Positions 14,861 to 54,596 of a stretch of DNA of 64,000 nt are shown piece by piece. The stretch lies in IMG/VR virus record IMGVR_UViG_3300024272_000021. The stretch is one strand, 5' to 3'. Made by a program: the position numbers and the translations under genes. Within the stretch, counting starts at the first letter, position 1. Every line of letters starts with the position of its first letter. Source of the stretch: a virus. Taxonomy: Duplodnaviria; Heunggongvirae; Uroviricota; Caudoviricetes. Under the pieces are notes generated by a model. It saw only the letters and a list, made by a program, of their open reading frames with translations, was not told the origin of the DNA and ran no database searches.

Positions 14861-14880
14861 ATGAAAGGCGATGATTTCAC

Positions 14881-15228: not shown

Positions 15229-15241
15229 AGAGGTGTAAAGT

Positions 15242-15580: not shown

Positions 15581-15661
15581 TGGCCTCACTTTAAAAACAT
15601 GACTGTGAAAATTATGTTAAAAATATTATTTTAATTTTATATATAATTATGAAAATGGGAG

Positions 15662-30302: not shown

Positions 30303-30443
30303 ATGAAAATTTCAAATTTAATTAACAAAATTAAAGGTATAGCAATTGAAGCAAATGGCGACGAAAATAATTGTGAAACTATCATTGTTGTGAAAAATGA
30401 AGATGGTACTTATACGGAGGTGACATCTGATGAAGACAATTAG
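30303..30443 (+). CDS. Small acidic hypothetical protein overlapping the endolysin start
   Basis: ATG 30303 after AAGGAGG; 46 aa. Confidence 0.4.
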   Translation: MKISNLINKIKGIAIEANGDENNCETIIVVKNEDGTYTEVTSDEDN

Positions 30444-31206
30444 AAAAGGTTCTAAGGGTGATGAAGTAAAAGTTCTTCAACTTATTCTCGGTGTTGCTGA
30501 CGATGGTATCTTCGGTAATAAAACACAAACTGCTTTAAAAACTTGGCAGGCTAAATATGGCCTTACTGTCGATGGTATTGCAGGATCAAAAACTTGGAAT
30601 AAAATCGTAGAAAAAGCACCAACACTAAAGACTGGCGCAACAGGTGCTTGGGTCAAAGTTCTTGAGGTGTTGCTCGAAACCATGACTGATGATGGTAGAT
30701 ATCTTACTGCAGAAAAACAGGCTGTCAAGGCTTATCAGACTGCCAAAAAGTTATCTGTTGATGGTATTGTTGGTCCTAAGACTTGGGCCGCTTTATTTGG
30801 AGTGTCTACTACTGTAACTACTAACAATGGTGTAAACAGTGTTAAACCTGTCGATTATAAACAGTATGATTCTCGTTGGGGTAGCATTGTGTATACTAAG
30901 AATAATACTTACAATCGTAGACAAACCATTAAGAGCGGTGGTTGTGGTCCAACTTCTGCGGCTGATATAGTGGCTACTTGGTGGGACAAGTCTATTACTC
31001 CTAAGGAGCTCTGTGAGTTGGCGGTGAAATATGGTTATAGGACAGAAAATAGTGGTACAGCTTGGAGTTACTTCAAGTTTATTGCTAATAGATATGGCGC
31101 AAGTAAGTTTGTGCAGACTAGCTCTTTTGCAACTATGCAGGGATGCTTAGCTGATGGTGGTTATGTGGTGGTTTCATTTAGACCATCCAAATGGACCAGC
31201 GGAGGT
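30430..31206 (+). CDS. Endolysin, exon 1 (two peptidoglycan-binding domains plus C39-like peptidase N-part)
   Basis: DGIFGNKT/DGIVGPKTW PGBD motifs; YKQYD..W and GCGPTSAA catalytic Cys motif; joins exon 2 as WTSGG|HY. Confidence 0.85.
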
Positions 31207-31466
31207 TAACAAAATGGCCTCCTAACACGGTGAACCGATACATGTCGGGTGTCGTTCTTTATTGAACGGCTAACGGGGAACGCTAAACGTAATAACGCAT
31301 GCCAATCCCGTGCCAGTTTTTGATTTTCAAATAAGGGTGTAGAGACTATTCCGAGAGGAAGTACATTGCAGGTGAAACTCCTGCTTTGGAAGCGCCGTGC
31401 TTTGATGATAAATATATTGTCAAATGAAGATATAGTCCATCTCCATGGAAACATGGTAGGTTAATG
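31207..31466 (+). mobile_element. Group I intron 3 (ORF-less, 260 nt) in the endolysin
   Basis: P1 GGAGGU/GCCUCC; P10 AAUG/CAUU; P3 CACGGUG/CGCCGUG; P7 GACUA 31344-31348 / UAGUC 31433-31437; terminal G at 31466. Confidence 0.92.
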
Positions 31467-31604
31467 CATTATTGTGTGTTATGGAAAGATGATGGGAAAA
31501 CAATTTACGTAAATGATCCTGCATCTTCAAGCTCCAGTAGAGCAAAAGGTACATATTCAGAAGTTAAAGCTGCTGCAAAGCAGTATTTTTGTTTTTGGAA
31601 GTAA
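31467..31604 (+). CDS. Endolysin, exon 2 (catalytic His and Asp of the C39-like peptidase)
   Basis: HYCVLWKDDGKTIYVNDPAS...YFCFWK*; 304 aa spliced; too short to appear in the ORF track. Confidence 0.85.
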   Translation, partial: HYCVLWKDDGKTIYVNDPASSSSSRAKGTYSEVKAAAKQYFCFWK

Positions 31605-31690: not shown

Positions 31691-32161
31691 ATGAGGATTA
31701 TAGCATTTGATCAAAGCACAAAAATTTCGGCATATTCCTTATTTGTTGATGGAGTATATGTTGAAAGTGGTGTTATTGATTTGCATAAAATGAAAGATAC
31801 GTCTGAGCGCATTCGTGCTATGGGAGTTGAGCTAGGTAAAACAATTGAAAGATATTCACCAGATAAGGTTGTAATTGAAGAAGTAGCTCAGCAAAGCAAT
31901 CCCCTGACACTTAAGCTACTAGCGCGAATTCAAGGGGTTGTTATAGGATTTTGTGCGGCTCACAATATTGAAACATATATTATCGAACCAAGTAAATGGC
32001 GCTCTACTTTGATGTTCAAACAGGGTTCAGGAGTTAAGCGTCAGGAACTAAAACAGCAGAGTATTGATTATGTAAAAAATACATACGGTCTTGAATTATT
32101 AGAAGATATTTGCGAAGCTATATGCATTAATGAGGCTGCGCATAAGATATATGGATTTTAA
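31691..32161 (+). CDS. RuvC-like Holliday junction resolvase
   Basis: IIAFDQST, VVIEEV, W...L...K and D..EAI motifs of the RNase H/RuvC fold. Confidence 0.8.
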   Translation: MRIIAFDQSTKISAYSLFVDGVYVESGVIDLHKMKDTSERIRAMGVELGKTIERYSPDKVVIEEVAQQSNPLTLKLLARIQGVVIGFCAAHNIETYIIEPSKWRSTLMFKQGSGVKRQELKQQSIDYVKNTYGLELLEDICEAICINEAAHKIYGF

Positions 32162-33375: not shown

Positions 33376-36300
33376 ATGGCTGGTAATGTAACTAAAAAGT
33401 ATACGGTAGGACTTAATCTTGATGTAAAAACTGCTGATGCGCAAGTTAAAAAGCTTGCCACAAACATTAATAATATGTGGGCAGATATGGGTAGCGCAGG
33501 AAATAAGTTTGCCGTTTTGAAGGATTTAGCAGATTATCTTGATCAAATAGATAAGAAAATTGCTGGTTTAAAAGGTAAAGATTTAGATCTTTTTAATAAG
33601 ATATTTGGTGCGGAAGGCGTTAATATTGATAAGGCTTTAAAGCAGGCAATGGAGCCTATTTTAAAGTCTCCTGAATTAATTGCTGATGCGATGAATGATG
33701 TTCAGACAAGATTAGCGGCAGTACAAACCGACCCAAAGGCAAAGGGCACTGCGGCAAGTCTTAGAGAAGTTGGTAAATCTATCAACGAAATGTATAAGCT
33801 TATTGGTCAGGCACCACCTATTGATATCGAAAAACAGCTAACGGGTGGCGGCAAGATTAAAGAAAAGCTTGCTATGTTAACTAAGCATTTTGAAGCTTTT
33901 GAGGTTAAATGGAAAGATGTTATGACAACCGCTGGTTCAGAAGGTGCACAGAGAACAGTAGAAGGTATTCAAGCAGAATTAGATAAGTTAGAACAACAAA
34001 TGAATAGACTTGGAGAAATTCAGAAGAAAATTAGTAATGTTAATAAGAACATGCAAAAATACAATGCGGAAGGAAGTATCTTTTCGCCTCAAACAAAATT
34101 TACTATAGAGGATGTAACAACGGCTATTCAAGAACTTGACACAGCGACAAAAAACTTTAAAAATTTCAAGGGAGACAAGAGTTCTCTTGAATATTTTGCC
34201 ATGTTATCGGACTACATTGAGCAGACTATTAAAGTAAGCAGTATGTATCTATCCATAGGTGCGAGTGGTGTCAATAAAGATTTATATGCACAATTAAAAA
34301 CAACAATTCTTGATGGTAAAACAGAATCACTTGCTGATATAATTGCGCACACAAATGGACAAATGGAAAGTAATTCGTTTAAGGCGCACGTTAAGTCTTT
34401 TTCTGAATATTCGAACTCTATTGATGGTCAAATTGAAACAATTGACTATCAAATGACAACTTTAGAAGATGAGTTAGAAAGACTTGGATCTGCTGCGGAA
34501 AATGCGGGAGCAGGTGTGTTAAAAGTTGGAGAACATGCGGTTAAAACCGCCGAGTATATTCGAGGAATGACCATAGCAATCAAAGAAATGTTTGATGTAT
34601 TATCTCAAACTTCTGACATTGGATATAAAGCATTGATTGATGGTCAAGGCATTGCAGTAAAACCCGGTCAATATAAAGAAATTTCTGCGAAAACTACCGC
34701 AGAAACATTTCTTGCAAACTTAATGCGGGATACCGATGTTGAAGTACATAGTCATCAAGGATTAAGTTCCAGTATTAATGTCCCAAATTTTAGACAGGCT
34801 ATGAAACATCAATATGAAGGTCTAACAAAAATTAGTGCGGTAATTGGTAAGAATGATATTGTCACTTTGGATTTGGCTAAAGTAAAAGCAGAAGACGCAG
34901 CTATTGCTTTAGAAAAGTTAAAAGAAGTAACAAGGGGAGATAATCTTAAAGAAATTTCGGTAGAAAAATTTAATAAAATTTTTACTGATATTAATCCTGA
35001 ATATACAAATATTGCTCAGAGATGGAATCCTTCACAGTTTGGTGATTTAGCGCAAAAAATATTTGATGTTAAACAAAATACACAACAAGCACTTGCTCCT
35101 GTAGAAAGGTTAAAAAATCTTTTAGTTGCGCTTGCTAACAAGAGTATTGATTTCTCTAATTATGAAGATTTATTAAAAACACTTTCTGCTGATAATGTCG
35201 GCGATATTTTTAATCAAATAGCACAAGCAGAAGGGATCAAAGAAGACGGACGAATATTACAGGTTGAAGATATATCTGTTGGAACTGTTCAGGATATTGC
35301 TGCGGATATTCAACGTCAAAAAGAATCGTTTATTGAATTAAGACAGACTGCGGGTGTAACATATAGCGAAATTGCAAAAGCCGCAAAAGAATATTCTGAG
35401 ACATACCATACAGCACAAGGTCAAAACAATGAATTTTTTAAAAAATATTTTCATGCTTCTGAAATAGAAGAAATTCAGAAAAAGTTTATGGACCTTGGGG
35501 ATGGTTTTCGTGATTTAAATGGTATAACAAGAGAATTAGCCGTAGACTTTGGTATAGATCCCGAAGACATCGAGTCTTTTGAACGTACAGAAAATGCTGC
35601 GCAACAAGCAGCGGTTAAATTAAAAGAACTTGATGAAATTGGGGAGTCTATTGATTCTCTATATTATGGTCACGAAATGACAGATGTTCGTATTGGTAAA
35701 TATACCGAACAATTAGATGCCGCAGAAAAGGCAATTAAGTCTTTAGGTGAGCAAGAGGTATTAACCGCACAACAAATAGAACATGCTAATGAAGTTATTG
35801 CAAATTCTAGAAAAATATTACAAATGGCGACAAATGACAATGAAGATGCACGTAAGGAAGCTGAAGGTAAATATGATTATACTTACGAACCAGAATTAGC
35901 AGTGGCTGAAGCTGAAAATAAGACTCTTCGTGCAGAGAATAATGATTTAAGACAACAACTTGCAGATGGGAAGGCAAAACAAGCTGCTGTTGAACAAAAT
36001 GGTGAAGTTACAACACAATCCGAAGCAGATCTAAATCATGAAGTTGCCGAAACAGCACAAGTTCAAGAACAATTGGAAACCGAACGTCAGATTACTGCAG
36101 AAAAACAAAAACAGTCTGATATAGTTTACCATGCAGGCGATTTAAGTAAGATAGATAAAACAGCAAAATCTTTCCCCTTGGGCCATGTAATTCCCAGTGC
36201 AAGTGATGTTATTTTTAATGGTGCAACAGGTTTATATACAACCGAAGATGTTAGACAATTTATAGGTAATGAATGGGATGGCGCTCCAGTAAGCTCTATC

Positions 36301-39300
36301 GATTTGTCCCAATATAAAATGTTCGATGCAAGAGTAGGCGAACTTGCTGCAAAGGCGAATGAATTTTTTACCAACTTAAATGGTGTTATATATGGTTATT
36401 TAATGGACTTCTCAGGTGAAGAGGTAGCTAAAATAACAAATACTATGAGCGTAGAAGATCTATACGCACAGTTCCAAGAAGTATTTAAAGGTATCAATAT
36501 GGATTTTGAAACCTTTAAAAATTTTGTTGAAAAGTCCCAGGCAATTGTTGAAGGACATGATTTCGCGGAATTTAAGCAACCTGCTATAGATCAAGGCATT
36601 GCAAAAGCAGGAGTAGCCCATAAACTACAGGGTGTTTCAGAGGAAATATTTAATTCCGATAGCTTCCAGACTCAGTTGATGAAGATGCTTGGATTTGAGG
36701 GCATCGATTTACGTGGAACCAAATTTAATGGCACATATAGCGGCGGCACAGTTGTATTCGATATTAAACCCGAAAGTTTAACGGCTGTTAATGAGAGAAT
36801 GTCCGATGTTATAACTCGTGAGATTCCGAAGGAAGAGTTTGAGATTACACCAGACTATTTAGAGCGTGAAGAAAAGCGTAGGCAGTTAGCTTTTGAGACG
36901 GCTGATGCAAATAGTAAACAGGCTGAAGGAGCTACGGTTGCGGTTAGAGAAGAAACGGCTGCACACCAAGCAAATACGGAAGCTATACAAAGAGAAACAG
37001 AAGCCAAGCGTGAACTTGCGGCGACTACAGGGGCAGATTATAGCGAAGATGACAGAATGGTTATAGAGCAAGCCGAAGCTAGAGCGAAAGCCGCAGAACA
37101 GGTTGTTCAACAAGTTAGCGCGAGAGTAAAAGCTGCAGAACAAGCCTCAAAAGAAGCTGGACTTCAAAGAGATCAAAAAGGGTTTGTCGTAGATAAAGCT
37201 AAAGAGACTCTTCGTGGTAAGCAGGCTAAACTAGAAATGGCAGAGCAAGCTAAGACTCAGGCCGAGAATCGACAGCAGTATGTAGAACGGATTAAGGCTG
37301 AGATTGAGGAGGCGCAGCAAGCCGCAGAGCAAGCTAAAGCTGAAGCTGAGGAAGCGCAACGGGCTGCAGGACAGGCTAAAGCAAACGCTGAGATATGGGA
37401 AAATAATATAAGAGAAGCAGAAGCTGCAAAGCGGGATGCGGAAAAGAATTTGGGACAAACTAAGGCAACATCAGAGGTGAAAGCCAAAAGAGCAGAAAAG
37501 GCCAAAGAAAATATACAAACCGCCCAAGACGCCGTTGTTGCATTAGATACTGAATTTCAACGTTACGTGAACCAACTTGAAATAGATGGCAAAATTGATT
37601 TAACAGAAATGATCAATTATGAGGATTATCAAGCCGTTTTAAAATCTATTCATGATGGGACTCATACTACGGTAGAGGCCTGCATTAGTGAATTTGAGAA
37701 ATTAAGTGCGCAACATGATATTTTGCCTCAGCATCAAGAATTAACCGAGAAAGAAAAGAAAATATCCCAAAAACAAACAAAAAAAATAAATGAAAAAAAA
37801 ACTGATTTTCAAATTGCGACACTCGAAGATTTTTCCAACGTTGTTAAACGCAATCAATTCGCAAAGACACAAAACCGACTTCGTCATTCTGATTCATTGC
37901 AACAAGAGATCGATGATACGTCGAGGTCTATGGAGGAATTCCAAAAACAATATGGCAAGATAATTGTTACGATGCGAGATGGCTTAAAACAAGAATCGGA
38001 AACTATGAGCGACCAAATTAGAGAATTTTTATCGAAGGTTTTATATGATAAAGCCGAAATCCAAGATATCGAATTTATATCTACAGCGGAACTTCAAGCT
38101 GAAGCTGAAAAGATTAAAGAGCGCAGAAAAGCTAGAGGTTCTGAAATGGCTCAAATACCCGATTCTGAAAGAGAAGCCAAGATGATTGAAGCGGCTCAAA
38201 CTAGAGCAACAGAGTCTCCTGTTGTAAAAAATGCAGTTAAAATAGCCGAAGAAAAAATAAAAGATGCGAATAGGGCTGCAGAGGAAATTCAAATAGCTGA
38301 AATGGCGTTAAGGGCCGCAGAAGATAAACTTGCAGAGCAGCAAGCCGTTTCTCCTTCTAATATGGCAAGGCGAGCCGAGGAAGCGACTAGAGCAGCTGCA
38401 GCACAAAAATGGATGGCAGAACAAAAGGCTTCGCTTATTGGCAATGATTCTAGCGATTCTGATGTGGCTGAGAAATCTAAAGCAGTTGAAGCGGCTCGGC
38501 TTGAAGTAGAAAATGCGGAAAAGGAATTAGCTCAAGCTCAAAAAGATTTGGAAACAGCAGAGCAAACATATCAAAAAGCGCAAGAAACGGTTCGTGTTGA
38601 AAAGGATGATTTAGTTAAAGCTCAACGCGATAAAGAAGAGGCATATGGCGTTTTATTTGATGCTGAAAAGCAAACTAAATCTGCTCCTGCTGAACCAGCA
38701 CAATTTGATCATGCGGAAAGTATCGAGCAAGAAGCCCAGGCTCATCGTGATAACGCTATCGCTATCGAAGCTGAAACTGCTGCTACTCAAGATCTTGTAA
38801 ATGTTCAAAACCAAGCAGAAGATAGTTCTAATGTAGAAGAAGTTTCTGAATCGTTGCCCGAACCTGAAAAGGTTTTCGATACTGAAAGTGGTCAATTAGC
38901 CATGTTTGAAGGAATGTCCGAGAGTGCTCAAAAGGCAAAGGATGATGTTTCTCAATTAAACGAAGAAGTTAAAGCTATCGAGGGACAGATTGGAATAGAT
39001 GAAATCCAAGAAGAGTTATCTCCCGTTCAAGAGCAACCCGAACCTCAAAATGTTGAAGTTTCTACTGAAAGTATAAATAGGTTAGCTGAAAGTGCCGAAA
39101 AAGCGAAGGCGAATGTTGTAGAATTGAGTAACGCCGTTGAGGAAGTAGACAAAGCAGATGATACACCTGCCGAATCCACTCCCGTAGAAAATATTTCCGA
39201 AGAATTGTCTGAATCCGCAGGCGTCGATCAATTGACTGGCAATGTTAACGAGGCAACAGACGCTCTCATCAGAATGGGCGATGAAGCAAAAACTGTTGAT

Positions 39301-40880
39301 GCCCAAATTGAAAATCTAGGAGATCAATCTACTCAGCCGCTTGTTGAGGTGCCAGAGACTAAAGAGGAACCGCCAATTCAAGTTAACGAAGTAGAAAAGG
39401 TAAACGATGCCCTTAAAGAACAGGAAAATATTGTTCAAGGCATTGCTGATGCTCAAACTCCTGTTGTTAATGACGTCCCTGTTATCGAGGCAGAGAATCA
39501 GGGGTTAAAAGAACAGAAGACTCTTACTGAGGACATTGCAAATGTTCCACAGCCTCCTGTTGAAGAACCAAAGAAAAAGACTAGAAAAAAGAAAATCAAA
39601 GAAGAACCTAAAAAAGATGATACTCCTCAGGAGCACAAGGAAAATGCACAGGCTATTGAAGCTGAAGCTGCGGCTACAGATAAGTTAGCCGATGCAACTA
39701 AAAGGGCAAATGCTGAGAAGAAAAAGGCCGAAGATGTGAAAACATCTTCTCGTAAAAAGGCAACAGTTTCTGACGAGGAAAGAGAAGAAAGAAAGGCTCG
39801 TAAGGCCACTATTGACAGTACGGAGAAAAAGCTGCGCGGAAAATTTAATACTCTTGACTTTAAAGTTGATACACAGAATCTAACTGACGAACAACAAAAA
39901 CTTGCTGATGAATATAAGAAACTTAATGATATTCTTGAGCAGTACGGAAGAGATGCTTCAAAAGTTAGTCAGCAGGAATTGGCCGATACACTACAAAGAG
40001 TTAATGCACTACAGCAAGAAATAGATGCATATAAGACAAAGTATAATATTGTTGATGGTCGTGGTGGCACTAAAAATGCATATGGTAAGACTGCTGTAGT
40101 TAATGCGCGGGCTAAGTACAATTCTATTGAAGGCAGGGCACAAGCATATGCTGGTTCTACTGTTGTCGATCCGAAATTAAAAGAATATAAAGCATCTTTA
40201 GAAGAATTAATAAAACTGCAAGCCCAATACAAGAGTGGACAGGAATTAACTCCTGAACAAGAGACTCAGTTTATAGAGCTAAAAAATAAATGTAATGACT
40301 ATTATAGATCTCTAAAGAAGGTTATTGATGCTTCCGATGAATTAAAAAATAATGGTTCCGAAGTCATGCCTATAATGGATGATATAGCTCTTGATGAATT
40401 TCCTGATAGAGCCCAAGCTTTAAAGAATTATGTTAATGAAATTCATGGATCTCGCGCCGCTATTGGTAAATTAAACGGCGACGCCACCAAGCTGGCATTT
40501 ACTATTAAAAACGGTGACGGAACTATTACCAAGATGACTGCGTCCTTGAATGCGGCGAGAACAGCAATTGTTTCTACCGCTGGAGATACTGAAAAGGCAA
40601 CTACCAAGCTTGGGCAGTTCTTTAGTGGTGTTTGGAGTAAATTTGGAGATTTATGGACATACGCTACTGCAAGATTTGGTGTAGATGAGGTTATTCAGCA
40701 AGTCAGACAGGGTATCCAGTACGTTAGAGATATAGATAGTGCTCTTACTGAACTTAAAAAGGTTACAGATGAAACGGATGCGTCTTATGACAAATTCCTG
40801 CAGACAATGTCTAAATCTGCAAAAGTAGTGGGTAGTACCGTTGCAGATTTAACAAATTCAGCTGCAGATTGGGCAAGGCT
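33376..40880 (+). CDS. Tape measure protein, exon 1 (long N-terminal extension plus start of the PhageMin_Tail-type core)
   Basis: Coiled-coil rich; ends LTELKKVTDETDASY...AADWAR-L, continuing as GYSLEEA at 41201. Confidence 0.85.
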
Positions 40881-41200
40881 TAATATTTAGGTCCCCTATA
40901 TGGCAACATATAGGTAAACACCCATCTCAAAACGGAGAAACTCCTGAGAAGGACAACCCCGTGGGTAATGTTAAATTTTAATATTTCATTTTAAAAAACT
41001 TCATTTTTATAATAATGAAATATTAAATATTTTACGTCCCGTAACGATCACAGCGTAATTGGCAACAATTATGCGTATGGTGGGGCTCTCTACGAGAGCA
41101 AGGTATGATCTGATCTGCACATATAATCTAATAATGAAAGTGCAGAGATAGGCAGAAATGACCTATCCCTTTTTATTTAAATAAAAAGAGTAACAAAATG
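40881..41200 (+). mobile_element. Group I intron 4 (ORF-less, 320 nt) in the TMP gene
   Basis: 8-bp P10 AAUAUUUA with exon-2 UGGAUAUU; P1 GGCU/GGUC; covaried P7 GAUCA 41046-41050 / UGAUC 41111-41115; terminal G at 41200; the frame is restored. Confidence 0.88.
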
Positions 41201-41722
41201 TGGATATTCATTAGAAGAAGCGGGACAGCTTGCGGAAACTACAGCAAAACTTCTTAATGTATCAGAGTTTACTTCTGTAGATGAAGCAACTTCCGCACTC
41301 GTGTCTGCGCTACAAGCATTTACCCAAGAAGGACAAGATGTTGCACAAAGCGCGGAAGAGATTGTTGACATTTTAAATAACATCGGTAATAAATATCCCG
41401 TAGCCACAAATGAATTAGCAGAAGGTTTGGCGGATTCTGGTGCCGCGTTAATAGCTGCTAATAATACAATTGAAGAACAAGTAGCATTGCTGGCTGCTGG
41501 TAACGCTACTATGCAGGATGTCTCCACTGTGGCAGCGGCTTTGAAGATTGTTGCAGCTAGATTGAGAGGCACTACTATTGAGGCAGATGATGATGCTGAT
41601 TCAGCAATTACCAACGTATCAAAGCTGCAGGCGAAAATTAAGGCATTAACTGCCGAAGCTAATGGCGGCGAGGGTATCGATATCATTAATGAAAAAGGCG
41701 AATATAAGTCAACGTATGAGAT
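41201..41722 (+). CDS. Tape measure protein, exon 2
   Basis: 522 nt: GYSLEEAGQLAETTAKLLNVSEF...NIGNKYPV...GEYKSTYEI, a typical TMP core sequence. Confidence 0.85.
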
Positions 41723-41854
41723 AAAATTATTGTCTCCATATAGAGAAATCTATATGCTATGTGCGTAAACATAGACAACAACTATATTGGTTAAAGGCCA
41801 GAAGTGGTTCAGACCAAGGTAAGACTTGTAATATTATAAATTAGGAGAAAAGAT

Positions 41855-42037
41855 ATGAATAAATATAGATGTGAATCTGTAAGGTTGTGTAGGTTTTTAT
41901 ATGGTCTTGGATTTGATAAAGAGTCTATTCAATATAAAGGAAAAGAAGCATGGTTATTTGAAAAAAGCGAAGAACTTCAGGAAAGCCTGGACTTCTTTTT
42001 TTATATGCGGAAAAAGATAAAAAATATTAATTTATGA
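41855..42037 (+). CDS. Intron-encoded small protein (DUF5659-like, tentative)
   Basis: Own AGGAG RBS; YRCESVRLCRFL...WLFEKS motif, homologous to 53078-53266. Confidence 0.65.
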   Translation: MNKYRCESVRLCRFLYGLGFDKESIQYKGKEAWLFEKSEELQESLDFFFYMRKKIKNINL

Positions 42038-42064
42038 TTGTAATTTTAAAGGAGCGAATGAAAT

Positions 42065-43588
42065 ATGGGATTTAGTTTTTATGATTGGTGTATAGAAAAC
42101 AATCGGAGTGATTTATTAGATAGATGGAATTATGAGTTAAACCATTGTTCTCCAAGGGATGTAAAATATAGATCGGGTAAAGATATGTATTTTAATTGTA
42201 TGAATAATAATCATCATGTGCCAGAGAAATTTCGAATTGATCATATTACCTTAAATACAGTAAAAGCAACATGTAGGCAGTGTAATTCTTTTTATCAATG
42301 GTGTCTTGATAATGGCGAACAAGAGCTAATTGATACATGGGATTATAATTTAAATGTGGATGATATTCATTTTGTCGCATATGCAAGCGGCAAGCGATGT
42401 TTTTTTAAGATATTAGATAAATATCCTAGCATTAGTTATCGTTTATCAGACATTACTAGTTCTAAGCATCTTAGTCCGATTAAAAAATTTTATAATTCGT
42501 TTGGATATTATTTAATACATACATATGGAGAAGATGCAATAGCAAAATATTGGTCTGATAAAAATAATAAAACACCTTGGAATTATGATAAAGGAAGTGG
42601 TAAGAAGGTTTGGTTTAAATGCCCGGACAAAAATTATCATGATGATTATCTTACTGAAATTTATTCTTTTACGATGGGGAGTAGATGCCCTTGGTGTGCG
42701 GGTAAAAAAGTTCATCCCAAAGATTCTTTTGCTCAATATAATATAGATAAATTTGGCATGGATTTTTTAGAAAAATATTGGCATAAAGAAAATATTATAG
42801 ACCCATGGACTATTCGTCCGTTTGCAAATAATATAAAAGTAATTATTCAATGTCAGCATAAAACGTATCATCAGTATGATGTTGTAGCAAGCGATTTTTC
42901 AACTGGGATCGATTGTCCGTATTGTAATAAAAAAAGATTACATATTTTAGATAGTTTCGGTATGCGTTTTCCAGAAGTTTTTGAAATTTGGTCTGATAAA
43001 AACGCGCAAACTCCCTTTGAATATCGTGTGGCTAGTCATGAAAAAGTATGGTTTAAGTGCAAAGATGGAAAACATGAAGATTATTCGCGACGGATATCAG
43101 ATTATTCATATAAACATTTTACCAGATGCCCATATTGCGTGCAGGAATGTGGCGAATCATCTTTTCAAAATCAAGTTAGAGTGTTTTTAAATGAATTACC
43201 CTATCAAATTTTACATGAATATAACTGTACTATCATTCCGATTAATTCAAAAACAAATCGTAAAATGCCATTCGATAATGAAGTATGTAATATTAATGGA
43301 ATAAATTTAATTATAGAAGTTCATGGTATTCAGCATTATGAACTATGTGGATGGCATATTACACAGGCAAAAAATAGTGGACGAACTCCCGTAGAAGAAT
43401 TTGAATATCAAAAATGGAAAGATAATTTTAAGAAGAATTATGCAATCGCACATCAATATGAATATTTGGAAATTCCATATTATAGAATTATAGACGATAC
43501 ATATAAAGATTTAATCATGTCTAAAATTAATTTAATAAATAATATAATATTACAAGAAACCCTAGAGACTGCAGGCGGTATGTGGTAA
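42065..43588 (+). CDS. Intron-encoded homing endonuclease-like protein (Zn-ribbon repeats plus Vsr-like domain)
   Basis: Repeated VWFKC...CPYC motifs; IIEVHGIQHY and YEYLEIPY; the 3' end overlaps the intron P7 element; paralog of 4959-6065. Confidence 0.8.
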   Translation: MGFSFYDWCIENNRSDLLDRWNYELNHCSPRDVKYRSGKDMYFNCMNNNHHVPEKFRIDHITLNTVKATCRQCNSFYQWCLDNGEQELIDTWDYNLNVDDIHFVAYASGKRCFFKILDKYPSISYRLSDITSSKHLSPIKKFYNSFGYYLIHTYGEDAIAKYWSDKNNKTPWNYDKGSGKKVWFKCPDKNYHDDYLTEIYSFTMGSRCPWCAGKKVHPKDSFAQYNIDKFGMDFLEKYWHKENIIDPWTIRPFANNIKVIIQCQHKTYHQYDVVASDFSTGIDCPYCNKKRLHILDSFGMRFPEVFEIWSDKNAQTPFEYRVASHEKVWFKCKDGKHEDYSRRISDYSYKHFTRCPYCVQECGESSFQNQVRVFLNELPYQILHEYNCTIIPINSKTNRKMPFDNEVCNINGINLIIEVHGIQHYELCGWHITQAKNSGRTPVEEFEYQKWKDNFKKNYAIAHQYEYLEIPYYRIIDDTYKDLIMSKINLINNIILQETLETAGGMW

Positions 43589-43760
43589 CATGTGCCGTGA
43601 AGTTGTTCTCCCTGTCAACAATTGTTGACGAGAGTAATATCCAGTCCGACCTCACACTATAACTAATTATATATAAAATGTGAGATGTAGGTCGAAAGTC
43701 CTACACGCCGCAATAACATATTGCGGTCAGTACCATCATAGATGGGAAAGTAACAGAGTG

Positions 43761-46700
43761 ATTATCAGAAATTTCAAAAATATTTGACAAAATGGACGAC
43801 CTATCGGCAGCTAACCTTTTGGAACTTGTAGCTGGTAAGAATAGAAGCTCGGTAGTTGCAGCCATTCTTCAAAATGGAGATATTTTAGACGAAGCATATA
43901 CCGACGCTTTTGATAGTGCCGGAAGTGCGGCTAATGAATTAGACACCTACTTAAATTCTATCGAAGGTAGGATTACCCTCTTTAACACAGCCGTCCAAAC
44001 CATGTGGACCAACTTCCTCGATGATGACGTAATAAAGTGGTTCGTTGATCTTGGAACATGGTTAGTTAAAGCTGCCGATGATGTAGGTCTATTACGTATA
44101 GCATTCGTAGGCTTAATGGGCGTTATGACGGTAAAAAACACCGATAAATTTGATATTGTTGGTTGGTTTGGCAAACTAGCCGAAAGTACTAAAAAAATAT
44201 CCGATATAAAAACTAATGGAATAGCTGAAACCGTAAAAGTTATTGCCTCTCTACCCGATATGCTGTCTGCCGTACAAGGTGTCGAAATATCTATGGATGG
44301 CATAGATGATTTGGCAGTAAAATTAGATGGCGCAACTGCTGCGGCGGCAACGGGACAAGAAGCATTGCAAAAATATGCATCGGGTTTAGGTGATTCCGAC
44401 AAAGCCTTAAAAGCATATATTGCATCTGTTGATGATGGGCAGTATAGCATGGCTGGCTTTAATAAGTTCTGCGATGCACATAATGCCCAGTTACAGACCA
44501 CTAGCGTTAAGACTAAACTTGCAGCTGCTGGTCATGCCGCGTTGAACGCTGCAATAACTATGGGAATTAGCCTGTTAGTAAGTTATGTACTCCCAAAAGT
44601 TATTAATTTCCTTGATGATCTGATACTTACTGCCGAAGAAGCAGCTGAAGCGGCAAAAGAACTAACCGACGCATATAAGACTGCAAAGAAAGAGTTTGAA
44701 GATGATATCGAACTCCTTACTATATCTAGTGACTCCGAATCTTATGAAACACTTTTGGATGAATTCAAGGAATTAACCATGGGTGTAAATAAGTATGGTG
44801 AAAATATATCTTTAACAGCTGACGAATATTCTCGTTATAAGGAAATCTGTGAAGCTATCGTAGGAATTCAGCCTTCTATCGCCAAAGGTTATGATAGCGC
44901 CACCGAGGCTATTGGTAGGAATGCGGGTATACTAGAAAAAGTCATTGGCTTAAAAAAGGAAGAAGCTAGACTGAATGCCGCAGAATTTGTCAGTTATGGT
45001 TTATATTCTGATAATGGTAATTTTGAAACACTAGCAACAAATGCCATCGAAAGTCGTAAAAAGGCGGCTGAAAATGCTTATTTAATGGCAATGGGGTCAA
45101 AGGAAAAAACGGGACTAATTATGGACACCGGATTGGTTAATACTTTGTATGGTCTATATGGCGGATATGACTATGATTATGATGCTGGTGAGTTTATTAC
45201 AGACAGACCATTTGATTCGGATGGAGACCGTCTGGCTACAAATCTTATGAGGATAATAGGATATTCTCCGAAAGAAATTGGTAAGGTATTGCAGACATAT
45301 TATAACGAATCTGGCAACTTTGAACTTGATCGCTGGGCGCTAGACTATCTAGATGAAATTGTAGAAAACAAAACTTTAATTGCAGAAGACGCAAAGAGGA
45401 TGGGGCTAGAGGGTACTGATGAATGGATTAGCACTATGTATGCGGAAGCAGATGCATATGAAAGTGCTTCTAATAATCTTAAAGCCGCAGCAGATAACAT
45501 GATCGATGTGTATCTGCAAATTCCTTATGCCTTAGAAGATTATGACGCTTTGTCTTCCGGTGAACAATCACTTCTTAATGCGTGGATCCAAAACGATGAT
45601 ATGTTTAAAATCGATGAGGAAACAACAGAGGAAGACATCTTAAAGGCAAAACAAACTATCATCGATATGGTTCGTCTGCTTGCCAACGAAGATTATTTCA
45701 CTGAGATTGATGGAAAAAAGGTTAGTGCCGACCTCATTCTTGATAGCATATTCAATCTTGATCCTTCCGAACTTGATTATGCACAATACAAAGAAGATAT
45801 GCAAACATTAGTAGACCATCTATGGAATGCAATTGGTGGAGAAAATAATGAGTTTGGAATTAAGGACAAACAACAATTAATGGTGATGTTCGGAGTCGAG
45901 TTTGTACCAGAAGAAGATGAACAAGCTCTTATAGATGACATCGTAAGAATCACTGGTATGGCACCAGAAGAGGCGCAGAAATGGATAGATGAACAACCTG
46001 CTATAGTTATCACTCGTATGCTTGAGTATGATTACGATGAAATTGGCAATACAGAAGGTTATGACGTAGATGACCTAGCAGAAATGGCAGTTCCGAATTA
46101 CAACTATATCGAGCCTAGAACTGTTAAAACTTATACTGCACTATCCGAAGAAGCATCTAATTATAATGATATCTTAGCGCAAACTAACGAACTTACTGGG
46201 TACAATGTAGAAGTTACTCAAGAATACAAAGACTCCTTAAAAGAGCTAGGAATCACAGATGAAGAACTCAATGAGTGCTTTGATGAAAATAATGGCTTAA
46301 TTGTCACCAACACAAGAAAATTAAGAGAACTCGTTGCAGAAAAAGAAAAAGCTCTTACTACTGATGTTAAAATGGCAAAGGCCCAGTCTCAATTAGATTA
46401 CTATGAATTAGTTAAAGAATTAGATGCTACTCTAGACGGTGTCACAAGTCTTGATGATGAAACTAAAGATTTAACGGATTCAATTTTGGAACAGATTGAT
46501 ATAGTACGAAAAGCCATTAATAATTACCAGCGTCTAGAAGATAGTCTCCTTGGCGTTACGAATGGTTTTGAAAAGTTCCACGAAGCTCAAGAAATAGACA
46601 GTCAAAATACTTATGGTGATGACTATGTTGATATGGCCCAAACCATGTATGATGCTTTCTATGTAAGTGGAGAAGTCGGAACGGAAGCTAATTGGGCTGC

Positions 46701-49700
46701 AATTGAAGCTTTAGTACCTGATTGGGTATATGAAGGTTTAGAGACTGATGGCGAAAGAATGAGGGCAATTTATGAGTATTTCAACAAAGAAATACTTCCT
46801 ACATTAACTCTTGAAGATGGTCAGTTATCTCTTGGATTTGAAAATGTTGAAGATTTCATTGAGCATGGACTTGCCTCTGGCGTTTTTGAGGGAGATCTTA
46901 GCAATTTCAGTCTTGTTGAAGGTTTAGATCTTGAAGAAGCTGCTGAATTAATGGGTATGACGACAACTCAGGCATATGCATTCTTTGCCACCCTTGATGA
47001 CTATACTACGGGAGATGGAATGTCTTTCTTGGCGCAGCTCGATGATAGTTTTTCTGGCAACATCATGAAAACCACTGATGAAATGCAGAGACTCAACGAA
47101 GAGAAATTAGCATTACTTAGTGGCGGTGAAGATGGCATTATTAGTCCCGAAGAGCAAGCACGTATCGACGAGATTAATAATGTAGATTTACCAGCTTGTG
47201 AGGAGAATTTACGGAAAATAGGTGAAACGGCCTATCAAACCTGGGATGAGTTTAAACACAATGAGATAGCCCTTGCCGCTTTAGGTGAAGTAGAAAATAA
47301 AGCTCAAAAAGTATCCGATGTGTTCTCGAAAGAGTTTATTGCTGAATTTGGTCTCAATGGCGACGACACAATCCAAGAAGCATATGATGACCTATTATTA
47401 ATACAATCAGGAATTGAAAATATTGATGCAACATCTGCTGCTGCGGCAATTGACGTAATTGATGAGGAAATTGCAAAGCTTGAAGAGCGGAAACGACGCA
47501 TTAATGAAGACACAACAATGACCCCTGAAATCAAAGCCGCAGAAACCGCAGAGCTTGATGCACAAATAGAAGCATACAAAAGTGATAAAGTTGAAATTGC
47601 AACTGAATTTGGAATTGAATTAACTGAAGAAGAAGAAAAAGATTTAGAAGAACAGTTAGAAGCAATCAAAGAATTTGAAATTGGCAATAAATCATTTATT
47701 GTTACTGACGATGGTACCATAAAGCAAACTATAGAGGCTCTTGACGAACTTAATAAAGTAGAAATAGATGATAAAACCTTTACAACTACGAATGTTATCG
47801 AAGAGAAACATACCAACGGAGGAATACTTGGCTGGATAACTGGAACAGATACATACAAAAAGGCCACTGGCTATCCCGTCAGAGTAGATGGAACTGCTCA
47901 TGCTGAAGGTACTGCTTTTAAAACAGGCTCATGGGGTGCTCCAAAGACCGAAGAAGCATTAGTAGGAGAACTTGGCCCCGAACTACTGGTTCGCGATGGC
48001 AAGTGGACTACTATTGGTGATGAAGGTGCGGAATTTGAACATATTGAAAAGGGTGACATTATCTTCAATCATAAGCAAACCGAAGAATTATTATCCAACG
48101 GACATGTAACTGGACGCGGTAAAGCTTATGCTGAGGGTACTGCTTATAATGATGTCACCGGTGTGTTTAAACCACAGGAAGAAAAATCTGAACCTATTAA
48201 ATATACTACAGTCTTCGATGAAATGTCTGACTATAACGACATTCTAGCTGAAACAAATGAACTTACCGTAGATAATATTGAGGTTACCGAAGAGTATAGA
48301 GAAGCTTTGGAGAAACTTGGTTTTACCGAAGACGAATTGAATACATACTTCGATGATGAGAACAAACTTCTTGTCAAAAATGTTAAAGGGCTTAAAATGC
48401 TCGTTGCATCAAAGAAAAAAGAAAAAGTAGCTACAGTCCAAGAAGTAAAAGCCCGAAATCAATTGGATTATGTTGCCAGTATTAAAGAAATTGGTAAATT
48501 AGTTGACGTCATGGAAGGTGCGTCCCAAACTCAGGAGGGTATTTCTAAAGCAACACTTGAAGCTTCTGATGTTTTACATTCTCACGTAGATGCTCTAGAG
48601 CAAACCATACAAGGTTATGCCCTTCTAGAATTAAAAATGTCTGATGCAGCAGCCGCTTATGATGACTTCGAGATTGCACAGCAACAAGATGCGGAATTGT
48701 CTTGGGGCGGTACCATGATCGATATGCTAGAGGCCATTGACGAAGGTTTTAGAACAGGTCAAGTTGGTTCCGAAGCATTCCAGGCGGCAGTAGCAGCTCT
48801 TGTTCCCGATTGGGTATATAAAGACCTTGATACTGTCGAAGAACAAATGCATGCCATTCACGATTATATTGACAGCAATCCTATTTTTGCAGATTGGTTT
48901 ACTGTCGATGACAATGGTAATTTCTCTATTGAATTTCAGAATATGCAGGCGTTTGTCCAAGATGGTATAGATGGAGTGACCGAATTTGGCGCGGTATTCG
49001 AGGGAACGGTAGATAACTTTACCCTAGCCGAGGGAGTTGATTCCCTAGAAGAATTCGCTAAGAGAATGGGAGTTACTGAGTCTGTTGCTTTAGCAATGCT
49101 TGGCGAACTTGAAAAATATGATGCGCGTTGGGGAAATGTTATTACCGATTTAACTACTAGTCCTTTAGATAGAGAAATTTTAAATGCAACAGAAGCATTA
49201 GAAGATGCTTATACGGCGCAAGAAGAGTTTATACGTAATGGCGGAGATTTAAACAGCGAGGAATATAAACAATTAGTCCAAGATGTTGAAGATGCGGAAG
49301 CTGCATTAGATAGTGCTACGGAAGCGGCAGGAGATTATGCAAGCACCTATTCTCAAGCCGAAGCCGTACTCAAGGGCGTAGATGGACAGATGACTTTTAC
49401 ACAAGAAACAGCAGATGCTTTAGCTAGATCACTTGGTTTAGTAAATGAAAATGGAGAATGTACTATTACTATTGATGATAATGGCAAGCTCTTGCTTACG
49501 GAAAGTCAAGCTGCAAGACTGCAACAAATACTGCAAGTGCTAGGAGAAGAGCCATCTATTATCGATGTGCAGCTTGCATATGATACAGCCGATGCACAGA
49601 TACAAAAACTAGAAAAAATATTAGACGACGGCGTAGTAGATGAAGCCGAAGCAACATTCCTAGTTGAACTAGACATTGATCCAGAGTCCGATAATCTAGC

Positions 49701-52700
49701 ACAAGAAATACAAAATGAGATTGACGAACTTGAAACAACCAAAACCGTTATTAACTTAACATATGGTATTACACAAACATCCGAAGGACAAGATAGCGGT
49801 ATTGAACAGTTATCTACATGGGAAACTAATGGAGTTACTATTCCTATACATGTTGATATTACTTCTTATCAGGAAGAAGCAGCTACCATAAATGAAAGTA
49901 CCCTTGATAATAAAGAAGTTGCCTTCACAGCTGATGCAACAGAAGCAAATGAAGAAATTGATTCCGTAGATAATAATCAAATTAACGACAAAAACGTAAA
50001 GATAAACGTAGATAATACATCTGCTCTAACTAATATAAGCACCGTTCAGACTGCTCTAAATAACCTTAAAGATAAAGAGATCAATATTAAAGTTAAGGTT
50101 AGCGGAGGCAATCCGATAAATGTTGGCGGCAGTGTAGACGTTGATGGTACGGCTCATGCATCTGGCACTGCTTTCAAGAGTGGTACATGGGGTGCCGAAC
50201 AAAATGAAACCGCTCTTGTTGGAGAACTTGGTCCAGAGTTATTAGTGCGTAATGGTAGATGGACTACTGTTGGTGAAAACGGTGCGGAATTTACTGATGT
50301 ACGTAAGGGCGACATCATCTTTAATCACAGACAGACTGAAGAGCTGTTGTCTAAGGGATATGTTACTGGACGAGGAAAAGCATTTGCAGAAGGCAACGCT
50401 TATGGATATGGATTGTTTGGTGATTATATTACCGACAAAGGCTCCACATTCAAAAATGGTTCTGATAAAACATGGTCGAAAACGGCGGATAAAGTATCTC
50501 AAGCTGCGAAAGATATAGGTAGTTCAGCTGAGGATGCAGCTGATGAATTCCGCGAAGTTTTCGATTGGATCGAAGTTCGTTTAGAAGAAATCAACAAAGA
50601 AATAAGCCTTAAGGGTGCCCAGCTCGAAAATGCTGTTGGTTTTACTAAACAAAATGCCATCATTGATGACATGATAGAGCTTAACCAGAAACTGTATACC
50701 AATCTAACAGCTGGTGCTTCTAAATATTATTCATATGCTCGAAATTTGCTTGCTAAAGTTCCTGCCGAATATCGCAAAGCAGCTCAAGATGGTACTATTG
50801 CAATCGAATCCTTTACAGGTAAAGTGGGAGAAGATACACTTGAGGCAATTAAAGAGTATCGCGAATGGGTACAAAAGGGTGACGATGCAACACAGCAAGC
50901 CGAGGAAACCTTAAAAGAAATTTCTACTCTCGCAAAGCAAGCTATTGATAATATTGCAGCCCAATATGACAATAAAGCTTCTTTAAGAGATAGTAAAATT
51001 GAACAATACGAGGCTTATAATGAGTATATAGAAACAGACCAAGGATTCTCGTCTGAAAAGGTCTATAAAGCAATAATAGATCAAAACAATAAAAAGATCA
51101 AAGACAATCAGAACAAACGTGATGACATGCAAGCCGAACTCGATGAAAAGGTTAAGTCTGGAGAAATCAAAAAATATTCTCAAGATTGGTATGACGCAGT
51201 TAATGATATTGCTGCAGTTGATGCTGAAATTATACAACTGCAAACAGATAATGAAAATCTGCAGGACGACATTAATGAACTTCACTGGGATAAGTTTGAT
51301 AGTCTTTTAACTCGAATTGATGCTATTACCGAGGAAACCGAGGGCTTGCTTAAACTTCTTGAGAATGAAGACGCCTTTGACGAAAGTGGTAATTGGACCG
51401 ATGAAGGTATTACTTCACTGGGATTATATGCTCAGCAAATGGAAGCTGCAGAATTTAAGGCAAAACAATTCGAAGAAGAGATTGATTATCTAAATAAGAA
51501 TTGGAAAAAGCTTGGCTATACAGAACAAGAATATATTGAAAAGCTTGCTGAATTGAAAGAGGGACAACAAGATGCTATTGATGCATATCATGACAGCAAA
51601 AAGGCTATAGTGGATCTCAATAAGGAAAGAGTCGAAGCTATTAAAGAAGGCATCCAAAAAGAAATCGAGGCTTACGATGAGCTCATCGAAAAGAAAAAAG
51701 AAGAATTGAGCGCCGAAAAAGACTTATATGACTTCCAAAAAAATGTTAAAAATCAGCAAAAAGATATAGCAGATATAGAACGTCAACTTGCTGCGCTGTC
51801 TGGAGATAATTCTGCATCGGCAAGAGCAAAACGTGCGCAATTAGAAGCGGAACTGGCAGAAGCAAAAGAATCTTTAGAAGATACATATTACGACCGTTCC
51901 ATCTCTAAACAACAAGAAGCGTTGGATGAAGAACAAGAAAATTTCCACGATGCCAAAGAAAAAGAAATTGAGGGCTGGGAAAAATATCTCGAAGACGTTG
52001 AGAAGGTTGTTGCCGATAGTTTAACTACTGTTCAAGCAAATACTGAAACGGTTTATTCAACCTTGCAAGAAATGGGTAACGAATATGGATTATCCATAAG
52101 TGAATCTATAACAACCCCATGGAAAAATGGTGAAACTGCGATTCAGTCTTTCTCTGAGAAATTCGGATTGGCTATGAGCTCAACAGTGGAAGAACTAAAA
52201 GAACTTGAAACAGTATTTAATGAAACTATAAAGGACATTGAACAATCTGGCAAGACGGCTGTTGAGACCGTAAATGAAAGTCATTCAAATTATACAGGAG
52301 CGAGCAAAGAAGAAGCAACGTCGGATAAAGGTAGCGGCGGCTCAAGTGGTGGTTCTAAAGATTCTGGTAATAGTTCTGGCGAAACTTATCCTTACGGCAA
52401 AGCTTCTGCAACTAGTGGAAATATCAAACAAGGTGCAAAGGGCAAAGATGTTAAAGCAATACAATATGCCCTGAATCAACTTGGATATGGCAATTCTGGT
52501 ACTAAGAGCGTCGATGGTATTTTTGGTTCTGGTACTACTAAAGCGGTCAAATCTTTCCAGAAATCAATGGGAATTTCTGCAGATGGTATCGTTGGCGTTA
52601 AAACCAGGCAAAAGTTTAAGGCTAAAGGATATGCTGTTGGTACTACCGGCGTTGATGAAGATCAGTGGGCCTGGATTGATGAAATGGGACTTGAGGAAAT

Positions 52701-53022
52701 TGTTTTACATGCTCAGGATGGTAAGCTTACTTATCTAAGCAAAGGCAGTGCAGTGTTGCCTCATGATATTTCAGAAAATCTAATGAAATTAGGACAGTTG
52801 GATCCTTCACTAATATTAGAACAGAACAAACCATCTGTCGGTCTAGGTTCGAACATTATTAACAATACTATGCAGATCAATGTAGATGCGAGTGTCGGAA
52901 CATTGCTGCATGTTGATGAATTTAATGGAGACGATCCTGCCGAGGTTGTTAAAATTGTTAATAAAGCTCTTGAACAACATACTAAAAATCTCAATTCCGC
53001 GCTTCGTAAATACACTCGTTAA
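43761..53022 (+). CDS. Tape measure protein, exon 3 (internal duplication, C-terminal peptidoglycan-binding domain)
   Basis: Acidic coiled coil; two GELGPEL modules; VDGIFGSGT...ADGIVG PGBD at ~52420-52620; YAVGTTGV...EIV and GSAVLP terminal TMP motifs. Confidence 0.85.
46120..50403 (+). repeat. Tandem internal duplication of a ~2.0-2.2 kb TMP module
   Basis: Copy 1 at ~46120-48147 and copy 2 at ~48196-50403; e.g. YNDILAQTNELT vs YNDILAETNELT, and LVGELGPELLVRDGKWTT vs LVGELGPELLVRNGRWTT. Confidence 0.8.
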
Positions 53023-53077: not shown

Positions 53078-53266
53078 ATGGTACAAAATACAGATATTTA
53101 TAGATGCTATAGTGTAAATCTTATGCAGTTTTTATCTCAAAATAATGAAAGATATATATTAATTGCAAAAGATATTAAATCTGATCGTCAATTTTGGGCG
53201 TATGTAAAAACTGATAGATTTAATAATTTGTTACAAAAGTGGATTAATAACAATCCAAAAAAATAA
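53078..53266 (+). CDS. Small protein (DUF5659-like, tentative), homolog of 41855-42037
   Basis: ATG 53078 after GGAGG; YRCYSVNLMQFL...FWAYVKT motif; the ORF-track extension to 52886 is spurious. Confidence 0.7.
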   Translation: MVQNTDIYRCYSVNLMQFLSQNNERYILIAKDIKSDRQFWAYVKTDRFNNLLQKWINNNPKK

Positions 53267-53291
53267 TTTATATATTAGGAAGGTAGATATT

Positions 53292-54596
53292 ATGAGGAAA
53301 TATGAAAAAGTAGATAAATGGATTGATTTGAGCGTATTACCTACAATAAGTAATACTAATAGAATTGATTGGGGTAATTCTATTGGCATTATGATGCAAT
53401 TTAAATACAATAAATACAATGGCATATTAAAAATAGTAAATAAAATTACTAAAGATAAATACAAGGTTGTTCTCTATATAAATAATGAAAGTATAGAATA
53501 CGTGTTAAATTCTAATGGAATTAAAAAATGCGAATTGGGCGGAGCATTTAAAATACCAATTGCAATTACGAATCCAGAGTTTATTAAATATTTTGTTAAT
53601 CAACAGGATGCATATACATACTCAATACAGAGCAATAAAAAGGTTGAAATGATATGTCCGTTGTGTGGTACTAAAAAAGAACAATATGTTAGAGTGTTAG
53701 CTAAGTATGGGCTTGCATGCCCAATGTGTTCAGATGGAATTAGCTATCCAAATAAATTTATGTTTAATGTTTTAACGCAACTTGATATTAATTTTAAGAA
53801 TGAAGTAACAAAAGCGACCCCAGGCTTTGAATGGATTGTAGGAAATTATAGATATGATTTTTATGTTGAATATAACCACACCAAAGTATTTATAGAAATG
53901 GATGGTAAATTTCATTTAGGGAATAAATGGCAAACTTACGAAAAGGCGCAAAAGACTGATCAATTAAAAGATAAACTAGCTTTACAACATGGCATAAAAG
54001 TAATTCGAATAAATTGTATGTATTCGAAAATTCAAAATCGTTATAAGTATATAAAAGACAATATTGTAACTAGCGAACTTAATTCAATTTTTAATTTAAG
54101 TAATATAAATTGGGATGTAGCAAATAGTTTTGCTGTAAGCAGTAATATAGCATTGGCGGCGGAATTATGGAACGATAAAGATTATTGCGTTATAGATATT
54201 GGTAATAAATTAGGAGTGTCGCGTGACACCGCTAGAGGTTATTTAAAAATTGCTTCAAAACTTGGCCTATGTGCTTATAATGATAACGAGGTTGAAATAA
54301 GAATGATAAACAAAATTAAAGAGAATAACAAGAAAAAATCAAAGCCAATAGCATTGTATCAAAATGGAAATATAATCAATGTGTTTCCTGGCGTAGTCGA
54401 TTTAGATCGTAAATCTCAGGAATTATACGGAACACATATAGATTTTAGAAATGCTTATGCTGTCTGTAAAGGGGATAAAAAACAAGCTTACGGTTATACT
54501 ATGAAATTTATTACTCGCGAAGAATATGAACAACTTTATCCGCAATTTAATCAACAATACAACATTAATGAGAATAATTTACAGGAGGTGAGCTAA
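53292..54596 (+). CDS. Free-standing homing-endonuclease-like protein (Zn ribbon, DUF559/Vsr-like nuclease, HTH, NUMOD1-like tail)
   Basis: CPLCG...CPMC; RYDF...IEMDGKFH...KVIRI; C-terminal SKPIALY...CKG.KKQAYGY; the stop codon abuts the Dit ATG. Confidence 0.75.
   Translation: MRKYEKVDKWIDLSVLPTISNTNRIDWGNSIGIMMQFKYNKYNGILKIVNKITKDKYKVVLYINNESIEYVLNSNGIKKCELGGAFKIPIAITNPEFIKYFVNQQDAYTYSIQSNKKVEMICPLCGTKKEQYVRVLAKYGLACPMCSDGISYPNKFMFNVLTQLDINFKNEVTKATPGFEWIVGNYRYDFYVEYNHTKVFIEMDGKFHLGNKWQTYEKAQKTDQLKDKLALQHGIKVIRINCMYSKIQNRYKYIKDNIVTSELNSIFNLSNINWDVANSFAVSSNIALAAELWNDKDYCVIDIGNKLGVSRDTARGYLKIASKLGLCAYNDNEVEIRMINKIKENNKKKSKPIALYQNGNIINVFPGVVDLDRKSQELYGTHIDFRNAYAVCKGDKKQAYGYTMKFITREEYEQLYPQFNQQYNINENNLQEVS

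Follow-up and report, generated by a model that had tools for sequence, protein, structure and literature searches.

A giant tail tape measure gene, very likely divided by two group I introns, in an uncultured siphovirus-like phage

Tape measure protein (TMP) genes interrupted by introns and TMPs of more than 5,000 amino acids (aa) have both been described. In prophages of the Bacillus cereus group, the TMP genes carry the group I introns TMP-IVS1, 2, 3a, and 3b, which occupy three sites and belong to the IA1 and IA2 classes; L. delbrueckii phage JCL1032 is listed in the same study (Tourasse and Kolsto 2008, PMC2504315). The TMP gene of Vibrio phage ICP1 contains an intron with an HNH-3 homing endonuclease gene (HEG), whose splicing was shown by RNA sequencing (RNA-seq) and reverse-transcription PCR (Barth et al. 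2023, PMC10448857). The Thermus phages P23-45 and P74-26, in turn, encode a 5,002-aa TMP and have tails near 0.8-1 µm (PMC10770324, PMC10034513). Here we analyze 64,000 nucleotides (nt) of the Caudoviricetes record IMGVR_UViG_3300024272_000021, the whole stretch being referred to as the window, where a single TMP gene is, with high probability, cut by two mobile phage group I introns that are of the IA type and fall within the conserved PhageMin_Tail domain.

The window corresponds to the minus strand of bases 92731-156730 in an IMG/VR virus record that is complete at 170,431 bp and has direct terminal repeats, and its GC content is ~36%; the exons, introns, intron-encoded genes, and TMP segments described below all lie on the plus strand of the window. 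Exon 1 (33376-40880; codons 1-2501 plus 2 nt) encodes an N-terminal extension and the beginning of the conserved TMP core, and exon 2 (41201-41722; 522 nt, 174 codons) encodes the core of the PhageMin_Tail (PF10145) domain, while exon 3 (43761-53022) comprises 1 nt, 3,086 codons, and the stop. Joined, the three segments make 17,289 nt, a multiple of three, and thus 5,762 codons with the sole stop at the terminus. The exons lie in codon frames 1, 0, and 1, respectively, neither insert (320 and 2,038 nt) is divisible by three, and the frame of exon 1 runs into a stop three codons into the first insert; therefore read-through or an intein is excluded as the way in which the pieces are joined.

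The tape measure profile phrog_4211 matches collinearly over all three exons and spans both joints, its positions 499-663 falling at the end of exon 1 (E = 1.5e-11), positions 665-784 in exon 2 (E = 2e-16), and positions from 815 onward in exon 3 (E = 1.1e-22). The PF10145 domain is recognized in exon 2 alone (42.6 bits against a cut-off of 33.2). Downstream of the TMP gene are a Dit-like gene (DUF6558_C), a minor tail protein gene (phrog_6211), and a tail protein gene (phrog_372); no tail chaperone genes were identified upstream of it.

Uninterrupted homologues align with the joined protein as if the inserts did not exist. The 2,528-aa TMP of Brevibacillus phage Sundance matches it in one high-scoring segment pair (q2426-2859, q denoting positions in the joined protein; E = 5e-57) that crosses both joints, and nine uninterrupted homologues of 2,528-6,026 aa are gap-free at both of them, for instance DWAR/LGYS against EWAR/LGYS, and KSTYE/ILSEISKIFDKMDD against KSTYK/ILTEISKIFDKMDD (slashes mark the joints). 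Dozens of homologues encoded by a single open reading frame (ORF; 3.9-6.0 thousand aa) are collinear with the joined model from the N- to the C-terminus. Further, homologues start at q1-10 and finish at q5762, confirming the assigned start and end of the gene. Translated searches with exon 2 gave matches within the annotated TMPs of Sundance, Thomasclavelia phage TR-TP1, Tsamsa, and phiL47. A first scan of the IMG/VR proteins, made with a low-complexity query, had returned no relatives.

Thus the three exons, the exact junctions, and the 5,762-aa product of the original prediction are all borne out by reading frame, collinear homologues, and RNA structure, splicing itself being inferred. It had also anticipated that annotation would report separate genes, and indeed public gene calls on 14-16 contigs list the exon 1 ORF (33376-40890; 2,504 aa) and the exon 3 ORF (43792-53022; 3,076 aa) as unconnected entries. 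The two are separated by 2.9 kb, where ORFs of 155 and 507 aa are located. Gene callers thus give two "hypothetical proteins" of 2,504 and 3,076 aa and miss the 174-codon exon with the core of the domain, and the annotation of an essential virion gene is corrected here.

The putative intron 1 (40881-41200; 320 nt) is an ORF-less IA-type group I intron with an AT-rich hairpin at the place where its relatives hold a HEG. In the predicted P1 helix, the exon end GGCU pairs with GGUC a few bases into the intron, placing a U•G pair at the 5' splice site, and the last base of the intron is G at 41200. It folds much more stably than shuffled sequences (z = -6.05). A HEG-bearing homologue of this intron occurs at the identical codon in L012, an IMG/VR relative, and ten near-identical contigs, whereas in another relative, L010, the same intron type occupies another site with the guide altered to match the exon. 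In our interpretation, intron 1 has lost its homing endonuclease gene.

The putative intron 2 (41723-43760; 2,038 nt), also of the IA type, carries two ORFs in its P6 region. The exon end GAGAU pairs with GUCUC, so that U•G again marks the splice site, and the last base is G at 43760. The first ORF (41855-42037; 60 aa) is DUF5659-like, though its PF18903 match (E = 6.5e-4) is below the cut-off, and it has its own Shine-Dalgarno (SD) pairing of -7.3 kcal/mol. The second (42065-43588; 507 aa; SD -8.0 kcal/mol) is homing-endonuclease-like, with three DUF4379 zinc-finger stretches (E = 3e-26) and matches to phrog_559, "HNH endonuclease", and phrog_9084, "homing endonuclease"; with its final codons this ORF reaches into the J6/7-P7 part of the intron core. 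The long-range P3 helix spans the ORFs, and the P7 pseudoknot is invariant among the aligned relatives, the core being alignable with introns in L008, L012, and L013 and with insert B of TR-TP1. In the TR-TP1 record (PQ571309, positions 11248-19077) the TMP is annotated as three coding sequences split by two "HNH endonuclease" coding sequences, with introns unannotated. Since insert B and intron 2 of the window have their group I core in common, this record most likely holds two unannotated introns.

Structures were derived with RNAalifold from ORF-stripped alignments, to which the P7 pseudoknot was added, and compensatory pairs were counted against slid controls. RNAalifold recovers P2, the long-range P3 (across up to 1.7 kb of ORF), P4-P6, P7.1, P8, and P9-P9.2. 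The type of intron 1 (type I, three aligned sequences) has 72 pairs with 99% of cells paired and 19 compensatory pairs, compared to 0-2 in slid controls; that of intron 2 (type II, five sequences) has 62 pairs with 96% of cells paired and 28 compensatory pairs, compared to 0-1. The long-range P3 shows compensatory changes in four of six pairs in type I and in five of seven in type II. P7 is constant within each type and different between types (GAUCA/UGAUC, GACUG/CAGUC, and GAGUA/UACUC), and a GNRA-capped P7.1, a trait of the IA subclass, is present in all eight aligned introns, with three and seven compensatory pairs. Of the eight introns of relatives that could be read to the 3' end, seven finish in AACA, three or four further nucleotides, and G, and the remaining one, L012_C, has AAUAGAUCG. 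The P1 guides vary to match the exons in L010, L008, and L012.

Several observations weigh against this interpretation. The compensatory pairs were counted on the same small alignments, of three and five sequences, that yielded the consensus structures, which favours those structures. The Rfam group I model RF00028, also when run with permissive thresholds, scores below its gathering value on intron 1 (13.2 bits against 50) and has no match on intron 2; it likewise has none on the introns of the relatives (six related loci). The spliced 28-nt junction word has zero matches for junction 1 in the JGI metagenome records and for junction 2 in IMG/VR and the JGI metagenome records; these junction-word searches found no intron-less allele or cDNA. 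The gathering score of RF00028 is, however, a test of detection rather than a defining trait of group I introns. In phage genomes, blastn with the inserts gave just three short matches, all in the HEG or the intron core. A scan with a 19-mer from the intron core recovered solely near-identical copies of one relative's intron and so brought no further diversity.

The relatives point to a hot spot for such insertions. Their ORF ends and exon breaks fall at q~2502, 2503/4, ~2567, ~2612, ~2629, and 2675, all within ~175 codons of the PF10145 region, and in some of them the frame changes between exons; the other introns of the relatives occupy at least four further sites within these ~175 codons. 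For instance, four IMG/VR loci (L008, L010, L012, and L013) contain introns at at least five sites near PF10145, with some inserts ~300 nt long and ORF-less and others ~1.2 kb long and HEG-bearing, none of them called by Rfam. These observations mark the conserved PhageMin_Tail domain as a densely occupied target of group I introns, ones that pass undetected by Rfam, which is relevant to automated phage annotation.

In the proposed mechanism, a late transcript would read through all five segments, and each intron would fold so that its guide pairs with the final exon bases, with U•G at the cleavage site. Transesterification initiated by guanosine would then excise the intron after its terminal G, and the joined mRNA would be translated from a single ribosome-binding site at 33376 into a mostly helical protein of 5,762 residues, setting the tail length of a sheath-less, siphovirus-like virion.

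The closest isolates by TMP similarity are large Firmicutes siphoviruses, namely Brevibacillus phage Sundance, Bacillus phage Tsamsa, Lactococcus phages phiL47 and WRP3, and Thomasclavelia phage TR-TP1. Most of the diversity is seen among uncultured relatives: a collection of 5.8 billion proteins contains 62 relatives of 1.4-4.4 thousand aa and 19 of 4.4-4.95 thousand aa, and a library of 1.84 billion representatives adds single ORFs of 5,029 to 6,026 aa. The 6,026-aa ORF was found in five assemblies from two sources, which rules out assembly artefacts as the origin of such sizes. A metagenome-assembled genome labelled uncultured Eubacteriales contains one relative. The tail-sheath family PF04984 was not found in the complete genome, whereas it was detected in control genomes. 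The phage belongs to an undescribed family of sheath-less phages with genomes of ~150-170 kb and single-ORF TMPs of 4,000-6,026 aa, probably infecting Clostridia. By these comparisons, the deduced 5,762-aa TMP is among the largest of its kind yet not exceptional among its family members, whose single ORFs run up to 6,026 aa.

Part of this length can be traced to a tandem duplication in exon 3. Copy 1 (46054-48147; q3441-4138) and copy 2 (48133-50403; q4134-4890) are 33% identical over 781 columns (E = 1e-113), and each terminates in a GELGPE-type motif. Most homologues have a single copy, two copies being seen also in the largest relatives (P0090, P0085, and P0087). The alignment thus attributes ~700 aa of the TMP to this duplication. 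The stretches on either side of an LTELKKVT anchor were compared in 61 relatives that consist of a single ORF and measure 3,800 aa or more. The part before the anchor measures 1,095-2,990 aa (median 1,979), and 2,457 aa here; the part after it measures 2,182-4,183 aa (median 2,580), and 3,305 aa here. Two further features of exon 3 are the sole hydrophobic, transmembrane-like segment revealed by a Kyte-Doolittle scan (44536-44604; q2935-2957) and a PG_binding_1 domain near the C-terminus (52441-52614; PF01471, E = 1.3e-18).

How much of so long a protein measures the tail is a separate question from the structure of the gene. The 3,123-aa TMP of Tsamsa accompanies a tail of 440 nm, and the 3,275-aa TMP of phiL47 a tail of 480 nm, which corresponds to 1.41 and 1.47 Å per residue, respectively, when the whole TMP is counted, including N-terminal extensions of ~730 aa; as a protein, the TMP of Tsamsa migrates in bands of 280 and 100 kDa. 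The scaling favours a ruler function for the extension, and applied to 5,762 aa it predicts a tail of 0.81-0.86 µm, to which we give about even odds. Two facts count against it: the predicted length rests on distant relatives, and the N-terminal extensions of the family vary from 1,095 to 2,990 aa, so that tail lengths would differ greatly if the extension acted as a ruler over its full length.

The main alternative retains the gene model and regards the N-terminal 2,100-2,400 residues as a head-proximal or ejected module, so that ~3,300-3,600 residues would measure a tail of ~0.5 µm. Such an arrangement is known from P23-45, whose gp96 has an ejected virion RNA polymerase (RNAP) at its N-terminus (PMC10770324). 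In our phage, conservation is seen in residues 1-900 and in a module at q897-1184, the position of the module shifts among relatives, a small alpha/beta domain is predicted at residues 417-550, and the length of the extension differs nearly threefold across the family. We note that the module, delimited as ~290 aa at window positions 36046-36927 (q891-1184), is 50-60% identical in several relatives, whose N-terminal extensions carry it at differing places; neither a family nor a fold was matched, the model of the module being of low confidence.

The predicted structure of the extension speaks against an enzymatic cargo. AlphaFold models, all of low confidence, are 68% helix for residues 1-1200 (21-sequence alignment; predicted local distance difference test, pLDDT, 57.6) and 66% helix for residues 1201-2400 (single sequence; pLDDT 48), with at most 2% strand over residues 1-2400 and long disordered linkers rich in P, E, and K. 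The metal-binding motif of RNAPs, DxDxD, is absent from TMP residues 1-2630, and, as to the two double-psi beta-barrel domains of such polymerases, the low-confidence models of residues 1-2400 show almost no strand and gave no PDB match. Pfam searches of N-terminal sub-fragments gave nothing beyond coiled-coil noise, a PDB sequence search of the region gave no match, Foldseek with the N-terminal models found nothing at E <= 0.001, and a wide VIA-align search with them returned only three-helix-bundle look-alikes (Z ~10, below the meaningful level for helical folds); an ESM Atlas search was negative or generic (scores 0.77). The N-terminal 2,400 aa are predicted to be helical or disordered, with no RNAP-like or other enzyme fold detected in the models. 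Given also that the measured tails of Tsamsa and phiL47 fit the whole TMP together with its N-terminal extension, we consider the ejected or head-proximal module rather unlikely. Conversely, it is a tentative proposal that the phage and its uncultured relatives use the whole TMP as a ruler and have tails 0.8-0.9 µm long, which would match or surpass the longest virus tail on record, that of Thermus phage P74-26. If so, the gene that sets tail length would in addition rely on self-splicing RNA, within a hot spot that offers at least five alternative intron sites.

A second alternative questions splicing itself: the inserts could remain in the transcript, and the TMP could be made as two or three polypeptides that assemble. 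A precedent is reportedly the HEG-split nrdA of phage Aeh1, and gene callers do report separate 2,504- and 3,076-aa ORFs. The pieces, however, are poorly equipped for separate translation. An SD-like GGUGGUGAG precedes the start of exon 1, and the SD pairing of gene starts in the window has a median of -8.8 kcal/mol; exons 2 and 3 have no ribosome-binding site, as their first in-frame starts, 34 and 11 codons in (in exon 3 the first ATG, at 43792), pair at -0.6 and +0.7 kcal/mol. Exon 2 would be lost altogether. Further, the joints lie gap-free inside a single conserved domain, and the inserts are strongly structured RNAs with group I hallmarks and abundant covariation, where promoter-like and terminator-like sites are not above the level of shuffled sequences. 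We therefore regard polypeptides made in pieces as highly improbable. That the gene is simply broken, in a defective phage or a mis-assembled contig, is even less credible: nothing specific speaks for it beyond the fact that metagenome assemblies can be chimeric, whereas the genome in the record, 170,431 bp with terminal repeats, is complete, identical exon ORFs recur on 14-16 contigs from three sources, every exon is open, and the intron structure is kept.

Other parts of the window show similar interruptions. An endolysin-like gene (30430-31604) with two PG_binding_1 domains and a Peptidase_C39_2 domain is split by a group I intron that Rfam does call (53.1 bits), 9.4 kb upstream of the TMP introns; exon 1 (30430-31206) and the intron (31207-31460) are followed by a 47-aa exon 2 (31461-31604) that continues the peptidase (...HYCVLW...). 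Two ORFs, 15662-18481 and 18714-21863, match successive parts of phrog_14959 (584-1158 and 1538-2023); probably a single gene is divided here by a further intron, near 18480-18715. Directly after the TMP stop, at 53078-54596, are a free-standing 62-aa ORF (phrog_21297) and a homing-endonuclease-like ORF of 434 aa (phrog_4538/9084), the same small-ORF-plus-nuclease layout as in intron 2; the Dit-like gene (DUF6558_C) begins at 54597. A third intron at the 3' end of the TMP gene was considered and ruled out, because the C-termini of homologues coincide with the stop at 53022 and the small-ORF/nuclease pair that follows is free-standing. Among the tail fibre genes there is a GtrB-like GT2 glycosyltransferase (26005-27054; phrog_22739), and a RuvC-like Holliday junction resolvase gene, unusual in a tail module, is located at 31691-32161, after the endolysin gene and before the genes that immediately precede the TMP gene.

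The candidate introns resemble those of the B. cereus-group prophages in being IA-class introns at several sites of a PF10145-type TMP gene, with P1 guides adapted to the sites and HEGs kept or lost. The TMPs there, however, are ~1,200 aa long compared to 5,762 codons here, and no similarity to the window introns is detectable by Rfam or blastn, the Bacillus introns themselves not having been directly compared. As in ICP1, a HEG-bearing intron resides in an essential TMP gene and the HEG content differs between isolates, whereas host phylum, HEG family, and TMP size differ, and splicing is deduced here. Insert B of TR-TP1 shares the core of intron 2 (~70% identical in the 3' half), with covarying helices, but the TR-TP1 genome is 89 kb and its TMP is much smaller (three coding sequences, ~1,560 aa in total).

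By size, the comparison is with other phages. Tsamsa and phiL47 are likewise large siphoviruses (129-169 kb), and the exon 2 domain is present in their TMPs at 31-34% identity, but these TMPs have 54-57% of the size seen here, are uninterrupted, and carry the domain ~730 aa from the N-terminus, as opposed to behind a 2,457-aa extension. Like P23-45 and P74-26, the phage is siphovirus-like and has a giant TMP, above 5,000 aa in length, with a long N-terminal region before the ruler part; it differs from them in that no RNAP signature or double-psi barrel was detected, the TMP belongs to a family with a PF10145 core, the host is a low-GC gut organism, and the gene is intron-split. Since an entire family of gut-type phages has TMPs of 4,000-6,000 residues as a rule, P23-45, at 5,002 aa, has neither a unique TMP nor the largest one. 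Intron-split TMP genes and giant TMPs both have precedents, and what is new here is the scale of the gene and of the uncultured family to which it belongs.

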